Shown here piece by piece: positions 52,016 through 53,538 of a stretch of DNA of 64,000 nt. The stretch comes from Chara braunii (lineage: Eukaryota > Plantae > Charophyceae), in contig BFEA01000007.1 of assembly GCA_003427395.1 (NCBI GenBank), positions 7,154,705 through 7,218,704 of the forward strand. The letters are read 5' to 3'. The notes under the pieces were generated by a model. The model ran no database searches. It saw nothing but the letters and a program-made list of their open reading frames with translations, and had not been told where the DNA came from. The translations under genes were made by a program, and so were the position numbers. Position 1 is the stretch's first letter. The number at the start of each line of letters is the position of its first letter.

Positions 52016-52669
52016 TTATGCTGCTCGTCTCTAGTGCTGTGACTTATGCCTACGTACAGTCTGAGATTGAGGCCTCGTGACATAGAGCCACCCGAAGCCT
52101 GCGAGTTTCGAACATCACCATCCAAGTTACATGACACAGAAATCAGCCATGGAGCAAAACTCCTCCCATAATGTAGGCAAACCATCCACTGAAAAGACTC
52201 CTCGCCTGAGGTACGGGTACTCTGTAGGCTCTGTCAGCGCCTCAATGTTAATCACTGCAAGAGAGATGTACCTCTCTGCCAAGCCTATCATATCCTCCCA
52301 ACCCGTCCCACCAGTGAGAAGAGAGGGAACGGGAGGCTTGGGGTAGTCTGTGTAGAGCTTAGGCCCAAAGCTACGAATCAGCTTGGTGCCACTCTCATCA
52401 AACTCACTCTCCCTTTGCTCAAGATACTTGGTAGCTGAGATCCACACCTCGTCGAAATGCTCATGAACCTCCTTGCCTTTCTTCAGGTAAGGCCTCAGAT
52501 CATGGATGGTGCCATCAACAAAATTGGTCTGGACGATAAAGATTGACAGGTCTCCCTGTCTGAAGCGGATGACACTGACATAAGAATAACGAAAAGCCTC
52601 CTTGCATGAGAGTCGATTGAGATTAGTGAGCACTGACTCGCTGACTGGAAATGAGTGGACTGTACTCAT
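52016..52669 (-). pseudogene. LTR-encoded ORF-Y (180 aa open from ATG 52669; homologous tail with stops to 52016)
   Basis: MSTVHSFPVSESVLTNLNRLSCKEAFRYSY...GTKLIRSFGPKLYTDYPKPPVP...WEEFCSMADFCVM; homologous to 4197-4852. Confidence 0.82.
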
Positions 52670-52734
52670 GAGAAAGATGTCTGATATCTGCTGATAAATT
52701 CTGATTTGATTGTTGATATAGTTTGCTGAACTAA

Positions 52735-52937
52735 TTGCTGAATTGCTTGCTGAATTGCTGATATGTTTGCTGATCTGAATGCTAAACCGAATGCTGAACT
52801 GAATGCTGAACTGAATGCTGAATTGAATGTTGAACTGAATGCTAAACTGAATGTTGAATTGAATGTTAAGCTGAATGCTGAATTGAATGTTGAACTGAAT
52901 GCTAATCTGAATATCATCTGGAATGCTAATTGAATGT
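52735..52937. repeat. 12-bp minisatellite (TGAACTGAATGC)n
   Basis: Directly visible; absent upstream of the other ORF-Y copy. Confidence 0.9.
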
Positions 52938-53244
52938 TGTCCAACTGCTGTCTGGACGTTGTCTGGACATTGATTAAGTAAAAGACTAACGGACAACTGG
53001 ATAAGGATTGAATAGTGACTTGGTAGCAATGGAACAATGATTAAACGCTGCTCCGAGCTCTGAATACCGTTTAGGGCGCTGTTCTGTATTCTGAGTACTG
53101 CCAGAATGTTTATCTGGGTATTACCAAAATGTTTGTCCCCGAACCGTGATTCACCGTATCACCATGCTGAAAAGGTGAGGGCGCGACTTGCTATTGTTCA
53201 AGGCTAACAGAGTTCAGATACAGGCGATTAGAGCACTGCAGAAC

Positions 53245-53538
53245 TCACCCAAACTTTGCTCTGGCGTTTTCCACTGTCTCTAAAGAGGAGCTGACAGTGT
53301 GTAACCTACCATTGTCTCCATAGAAGCAGATTACATATTCAATGTACGTTTCACCCTTCACCCTCTGAACAGCGTGCTCACGTTGAACCTTTCTATGTAT
53401 CTTTATGTCTCGGCATGCTTCTTTCTCCCACCCATCTCTTTTATCCCTGTTCAGTTCACTTTTCACCACCAGAACTTCGTGCTCCCTCATGACTGATACA
53501 CTAGCTATGCCACAAGGCTGTCGGATGGGTTCTAACAA
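53245..53538 (-). CDS. LTR-encoded ORF-X (C-terminal part); unknown function
   Basis: Protein-level homology to 3616-3831 at the syntenic position upstream of ORF-Y. Confidence 0.7.
   Translation of the reverse strand: MLEPIRQPCGIASVSVMREHEVLVVKSELNRDKRDGWEKEACRDIKIHRKVQREHAVQRVKGETYIEYVICFYGDNGRLHTVSSSLETVENARAKFG

Follow-up and report, generated by a model that had tools for sequence, protein, structure and literature searches.

Small genes upstream of the end of a long terminal repeat of a Ty3/gypsy-type element in the charophyte alga Chara braunii

The window, as the whole analysed stretch of DNA is called here, comprises 64,000 nucleotides of contig BFEA01000007.1 of Chara braunii (positions 7,154,705 to 7,218,704 of the forward strand) and is a repeat-rich eukaryotic region with three families (A, B and C) of Ty3/gypsy-type elements. 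Family C is represented by two diverged copies of a long terminal repeat (LTR) on opposite strands, and upstream of the LTR end both copies carry a series of small sense open reading frames (ORFs), designated W, Z, X and Y in the order of reading. The original prediction for this DNA was framed in terms of plant Ty3/gypsy elements, although the host is a charophyte alga and not a land plant, and it described X and Y; beyond these, ORF-W, ORF-Z and three paralogues of Y (Y3, Y4 and Y5) were found.

Coding sequences upstream of the LTR end

The predicted arrangement of X followed by Y in the sense direction was found in both copies, with starts ~1.96 and 1.14 kb before the LTR end in copy 2 and ~1.76 and 1.14 kb before it in copy 1, but the ORF starts proposed at 3616 and 53538 had to be moved, the ATG starts being at 3580 and 53490. 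The full frame of ORF-Y amounts to ~217 codons and is whole in neither copy. Over 178 codon pairs, the differences between the copies fall on the three codon positions as 43/37/84 (chi-square p = 4e-6), as had been claimed from third-position differences, with a nonsynonymous divergence (dN) of 0.26 and a synonymous divergence (dS) of 1.16. The resulting dN/dS, whose calculation had been proposed as a check, is 0.22 (bootstrap 95% confidence interval 0.13-0.35) and hence not near 1, as compared to 1.13 and 1.33 in the other two sense frames, and purifying selection on ORF-Y between the copies is clear. The frame extends for a further ~38 codons to a stop at a shared position (ratio of nonsynonymous to synonymous proportions, pN/pS, 0.42; periodicity p = 0.08), which accounts for the end points 52016 and 4852 of the original prediction. 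Small periodicities are not to be over-read, since the non-coding segments after Y, too, have a surplus of differences in this register, though a milder one (p = 0.06 and 0.11). Difficulty in aligning the neighbouring DNA, also part of the earlier description, was encountered upstream only; downstream, the last 331 aligned bases, which are non-coding, are 87% identical between the copies, as against 69% for ORF-Y.

For W, Z and X, the evidence for purifying selection is weaker than for Y. ORF-X aligns without gaps over 77 codons with 35% amino-acid identity and 48% DNA identity, at an alignment score of 130 as compared to a maximum of 48 in 200 shuffles; its pN/pS is 0.56, with pS saturated. 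In the basic micro-ORF Z, 14 of the 23 residues are identical between the copies, 10 of these via synonymous codons, a conservation matched by 4 of 20000 random-mutation simulations in what was a post hoc test, and among 782 sense ORF pairs Z ranks second and X first. ORF-W is interrupted by two stops in copy 2; its relatives make up 28 of 36 candidate protein clusters, all of them named Chara braunii, and those of full length (173-174 amino acids) read through both of these positions. In P0003, a Chara gene model from a different scaffold, W stands at the start and Y comes after it. Most copies of these ORFs in the window are broken, at different places in copy 1 and copy 2, and open natural relatives exist for W and for the Y paralogues.

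In copy 2 but not in copy 1, the interval from X to Y contains a degenerate short tandem repeat (52680-52960, minus strand), which makes spurious long open frames. At the end of ORF-X, a donor-like sequence is a candidate for an X-Y splice.

Extent of the LTR and neighbouring features

One long inverted match in a self-comparison of the window joins 4196-5341 to 52670-51525 at 74% identity. GACA forms the end of each copy (5340 and 51526), and homology stops at those points, as expected of the LTR ends that had been proposed there. In copy 2, the terminal CA is followed by a primer-binding site after a spacer of 4 nt (2 nt in families A and B), whereas copy 1 is without such a site and unrelated DNA starting with ATGC begins after 5340. 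The primer-binding sequence, which we take to be of the tRNA-Asp type, is common to the three families, at 12139 (plus strand), 34414 (minus) and 51521 (minus), and these three matches in the window compare with 0.01 expected. Copy 2, with its primer-binding site, and copy 1, which has none, keep the order W-Z-X-Y-end along a stretch of at least 5.3 kb. This collinearity of four ORFs, along with the family B LTR pair, supports and extends the idea of a gene cassette in a long LTR. The LTRs of family B measure 5.4-6 kb and flank an element with the same primer-binding site as family C, gag, then the order PR-RT-RH-INT and a G-rich purine tract; this pair and its target duplication ACGC establish that LTRs of such length are real in this genome.

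At its 5' side, the family C LTR of copy 2 approaches a different high-copy repeat with short internal repeats, which starts at 58915, reaches to 59150 and beyond, and has mixed flanks in other copies (30 contigs, agreement 0.47), so that the LTR would span roughly 5.8-7.4 kb. Several TG candidates for the LTR start occur between 57992 and 58901, none of them confirmed. Non-coding blocks of high depth and high conservation upstream of ORF-W (57725-58041 and 58500-58900) are candidate promoter or LTR-start elements. Near the 3' end, an AATAAA is the only one conserved in both copies.

Y3, Y4 and Y5 follow directly behind the primer-binding site and are 22-26% identical to Y, so that members of the Y family occur outside the LTR as well. 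The end of Y3 and the start of Y4 overlap by 11 nt, and 9 nt separate the Y4 stop from the start of Y5; an open natural relative of Y4 with 161 amino acids (P0010) is 54% identical to it. Y5 is truncated and the next feature is a gag zinc knuckle, so that the internal region of copy 2 has a deletion; family C pol is absent from the window, and the element of copy 2 retains the gag knuckle only.

Table 1. Positions of the family C features and of the family B LTR pair in the window
Feature	Position	Strand	Remarks
Family C LTR copy 1 (3' or solo LTR)	1..5340	+	leaves window start inside ORF-W
ORF-W C-terminal part, copy 1	7..138	+	profile expect value (E) 3e-13; pN/pS 0.37 over 37 codons
ORF-Z copy 1	2470..2541	+	start and stop at same places as copy 2
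ORF-X copy 1	3580..3831	+	one internal stop
ORF-Y copy 1	4197..4852	+	non-ATG start, one frameshift, two stops
Family B LTR pair	21039-26401 and 34417-40369 (approx.)	-	flanks gag-pol; 4-bp target duplication ACGC
gag zinc-knuckle fragment (CX2CX4HX4C)	49654..49818	-	E 2e-6 vs family B gag, single comparison
Y paralogue Y5	50020..50276	-	frameshifted, truncated
Y paralogue Y4	50286..50774	-	two internal stops
Y paralogue Y3	50764..51255	-	three internal stops
Primer-binding site	51504..51521	-	common to families A and B
Family C LTR copy 2 (5' LTR)	51526..58900	-	3' end 51526; 5' end ~57.3-58.9 kb
AATAAA, likely polyadenylation signal	51715..51720	-	~195 nt before LTR end; copy 1: 5147-5152
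ORF-Y copy 2	52016..52669	-	180 open codons (52669-52127), then stops in frame to 52016
ORF-X copy 2	53245..53490	-	81 amino acids, open
ORF-Z copy 2, basic micro-ORF	54933..55004	-	23 codons
ORF-W	56770..57294	-	174 codons, two internal stops (128 open codons)

Family A also carries extra genes. In the interval from its primer-binding site (12139) to gag (15487), it has two paralogous ORFs on the plus strand (13487-14080 and 14677-15297) that share 37-39% identity; they have no Pfam hit and are not matched by the W, X and Y profiles. It seems that Chara elements of this kind generally carry tandem accessory genes. Tandem arrays with a period of around 91-93 bp occur at 7437-8567 and 8756-10360 and possibly lie within a family A LTR. 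Adjoining tRNA-Arg(TCT) and tRNA-Tyr(GTA) genes at 59552-59722 (plus strand) have the appearance of an organelle-derived insert, and an Rfam search over 49000-60500 returned two tRNAs only.

Relatives, abundance and predicted folds

A profile search with Y in 1.84 billion proteins revealed nine relatives, five of them Chara braunii gene models and four stop-free proteins of 121-161 amino acids on short ENA contigs; every named protein relative is a Chara braunii gene model. Candidates of similar length yielded no Y homologue (0 of 35) and longer proteins two (of 638), while pattern matches in metagenome and viral contigs were confirmed in 0 of 99 and 0 of 11 cases, and a 24-base motif of the LTR end had no exact match in these contig collections. 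Nothing above the Pfam cut-off was obtained for W, X, Y or the four small Y relatives, nor any hit of the Y profile among PDB sequences up to an E of 10. Two of the Chara gene models, P0015 and P0016, have distant Y-like domains in a different context, one domain in one model and two in the other, behind a shared cysteine-rich N-terminal region of no known family, and probably belong to another element family; P0015 also gave a weak match of the Mutator-like kind (E 0.0016), short of the Pfam cut-off.

Abundance was assessed as summed contig depth at 85% likeness, which is not a copy number. By this measure, the last 500 bp of the LTR stand highest (16000-80000); W, Y and the paralogues have values in the thousands, ORF-X has ~300, and most bins in the spacers lie at 50-150. 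The 85% cut-off hides other subfamilies, given a difference of 31% between the two copies in Y; the pattern fits divergence, and the presence of the cassette in every copy is unproven by depth. In RNA run X6, 1094 reads gave a profile that tracks the DNA depth on both strands, the reads being mostly <95% alike and none lying over ORF-X; runs X5 gave 45 reads and X7, over 58450-59150 only, 18 reads.

None of 10 proteins tested contains a membrane segment (maximal 19-residue hydropathy <=1.23), and the cassette proteins thus lack the transmembrane character of env-like products. Structure models gave a mean predicted local distance difference test (pLDDT) value of 56.5 for Y, with ~60-84 over residues 1-100 and mostly <50 over residues 109-180, and 69.8 for residues 1-98 of W. 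Both models predict three adjacent strands followed by a long helix and one more strand, and 10 of the top 50 structural matches are common to W and Y. For Y, the matches comprise Crl, GNAT acetyltransferases and gelsolin domains (Z score <=5.3), while the best match for W is the C-terminal domain of the reptarenavirus L protein (5muz_B; Z score 6.6, root-mean-square deviation 3.1, 82 of 97 residues aligned). GNATs are also among the structural matches of W, and no VIA Z score of 8 or more was reached by W or Y. Foldseek returned no match with E <=0.001 for Y (viral and pdb sets) or W (pdb set), and in the ESM Atlas the best score for Y was 0.79, a lead at most, with no usable hit for W. The absence of fold matches would not by itself make the W/Y fold new, and the C-terminal part of Y is poorly modelled. 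W combines an acidic stretch with a basic tail and Z, too, is basic, charges that are compatible with nucleic-acid-related roles and are not evidence of one.

Interpretation, alternatives and comparison with known systems

The anatomy of the cassette can be stated with high confidence, and the cassette most likely lies within a 6-7 kb LTR of a Chara Ty3/gypsy element. The fuller reading, that W, Z, X and Y lie upstream of the LTR end, likely in the LTR itself, and are likely soluble helpers of the element's expression, is on balance the one we favour. The genes would then be located in U3, with a short R-U5, given that the one AATAAA shared by the copies is ~195 nt away from the LTR end. Such an organization might have arisen when a 3' accessory-gene region was absorbed into the LTR via an upstream shift of plus-strand priming, and the genes could be expressed from RNAs that are sub-genomic or start internally and that end at the conserved AATAAA, in which case solo LTRs could express them. 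W and Y may derive from one small beta-beta-beta-alpha-beta domain, going by their models, that was duplicated repeatedly. The weakest step is the function, for which trans-activation or relief from host silencing is proposed; taken alone, this proposal is doubtful, and the anti-silencing or host-interaction role suggested originally found no direct support in any of the analyses. A bolder version, also only tentatively put forward, regards the LTR as an operon-like multi-gene cassette, in which one small lineage-specific domain was amplified to at least five paralogues to either side of the primer-binding site and a 23-residue micropeptide was added, with solo LTRs as autonomous units expressing regulators of silencing or translation.

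Several observations weigh against the favoured reading. The LTR 5' end was not found from clipped contigs, the sole boundary seen being that of the neighbouring repeat at 58915, and no intact two-LTR family C element was seen in the window, where the two copies are not a pair and the other ends needed for a target duplication are lost or lie beyond the window. Tables of loose contig ends missed even the known 3' end at 51526, so that they have little power against an internal boundary. No conserved TATA box occurs in the last 2 kb of the LTR copies. The depth of the last 500 bp is 4-8 times that of Y and >50 times that of X, which fits divergence or many copies devoid of a cassette. The codon-position distribution for ORF-X (42/31/48) is not significant (p = 0.16), and the claimed third-position pattern stands for Y and not for X, homologous as the two copies of X are. 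The W and Y profiles align in the same register with an E of 0.12 and a probability of 0.5%, by which homology is not established, and X matches neither profile. No result points to a specific function.

Among the alternatives, the one that survives best, with a modest chance of being right, is that of a polycistronic leader, in which transcription starts near the LTR 5' end and a single RNA covers W-Z-X-Y, the primer-binding site, Y3-Y5 and gag, the proteins acting on RNA or on translation re-initiation and not on chromatin. The overlap of Y3 with Y4 and the 9-nt gap between Y4 and Y5 amount to a coupled layout, and the best structural match of W, which Y also finds at a Z score of 4.0 on the same chain, is to what is presumably a cap-binding domain. 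However, the AATAAA is conserved near the LTR end, a 7-kb R-U5 would require unusually long strong-stop DNA, and Z scores below 8 may reflect a common arrangement according to the tool's own note.

Somewhat less probable is the alternative that W to Y are ordinary 3' extra ORFs of the internal region, with a true LTR of only 0.5-1 kb at the end; copy 2 would then be the middle repeat in an element that is tandem or rearranged. The unpinned LTR 5' end would permit this, the strongly conserved terminal 331 bp are covered more deeply than the rest, and a position between pol and the 3' LTR is the common case for extra ORFs (PMC7264820). Such a structure predicts pol upstream of W in copy 2, where none of five ORFs tested (56.9-59.1 kb) has a Pfam hit. 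Furthermore, no short repeat is duplicated within the block from W to the end, and a crude scan from the end of ORF-X to the LTR end found a purine tract plus TG in neither copy, while long LTRs are demonstrated in the same window by family B.

An improbable alternative is that the ORFs are relics, once coding or derived from a nested element and now neutral cargo. Stops or frameshifts in most window copies are in its favour, as is the distant Y-like domain in P0015 with its Mutator-like match, but selection acted while the two LTR subfamilies diverged, stop-free relatives exist, and breaks that differ in place between the copies are expected from decay after insertion. Least probable of all is a derivation of W and Y from GNAT acetyltransferases that acetylate chromatin or host proteins, since GNAT chains, though filling many top structural rows for both (best Foldseek E 0.01 at TM 0.37, for W), reach Z scores of only <=5.6 (W) and <=4.9 (Y), tied with the unrelated folds Crl and gelsolin, the motif R/Q-x-x-G-x-G of the pyrophosphate-binding loop (motif A) is not conserved, as judged by eye, in the loop after the third strand in 15 aligned Y sequences, W stops after the fourth strand, and no hit was obtained in Pfam or among PDB sequences.

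Ty3 elements with extra ORFs and genes in retroviral LTRs are known already, and what appears to be new is a multi-gene LTR cassette; a search of titles and abstract openings found no publication on these Chara genes or on such a cassette. If selected, a multi-gene LTR cassette would help to account for very long LTRs and would supply small soluble proteins of a new family for expression and testing. For annotation, ORF-W relatives account for at least 28 of the Chara braunii protein clusters that appear as hypothetical genes, and some tens of Chara 'hypothetical genes' would be LTR cargo if the operon-like version were true.

For Ty3/gypsy elements of plants, a review places additional ORFs in the internal region, most of them downstream of pol and ahead of the 3' LTR (PMC7264820). 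A survey describes extra ORFs of at least 250 codons and LTRs up to ~5 kb, with a 6-kb limit in the LTR search (PMC6317226); the Chara cassette genes would fall below these thresholds. LTRs of plant-lineage retrotransposons have been treated as non-coding, and a standard survey with such settings would have missed these genes (PMC6317226). The plant non-chromovirus elements Athila, Ogre, Retand and Grande resemble family C as large long-LTR elements with fast-evolving extra ORFs of unassigned function, located upstream of gag and downstream of pol; however, in the parts of the literature at hand these are described in the internal region and not in the LTR (PMC6317226, PMC7264820). No sequence similarity between them and the Chara genes was found, and in family C a tandem gene family lies on both sides of the primer-binding site. 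Phygy of Physcomitrella, a non-chromovirus of a non-seed plant with NCGN target preference, is described in the same source as short and without extra ORFs (PMC6317226), and its putative likeness to the Chara elements lies in target sites, the family B duplication being ACGC and copy 1 being followed by ATGC.

Host genes captured by retrotransposons reportedly include MBD in arthropod Copia elements. DNMT3 was captured by retrotransposons of Klebsormidium, another charophyte, according to the report on that alga (PMC5890265). These captures set a precedent for cargo aimed at host methylation, but they concern recognisable host domains, whereas W, X, Y and Z match nothing known.

The retroviral genes sag of mouse mammary tumour virus and nef of human and simian immunodeficiency viruses lie in or overlap U3. 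Like them, the Chara genes are sense accessory genes, most likely in an LTR, and may be expressed from sub-genomic RNA running to the LTR polyadenylation site. They differ in that the retroviral LTR carries one gene as compared to four in Chara, where env, membrane segments and any match in sequence or fold are lacking. A cassette maintained by selection would represent an algal parallel to the complex retroviruses.
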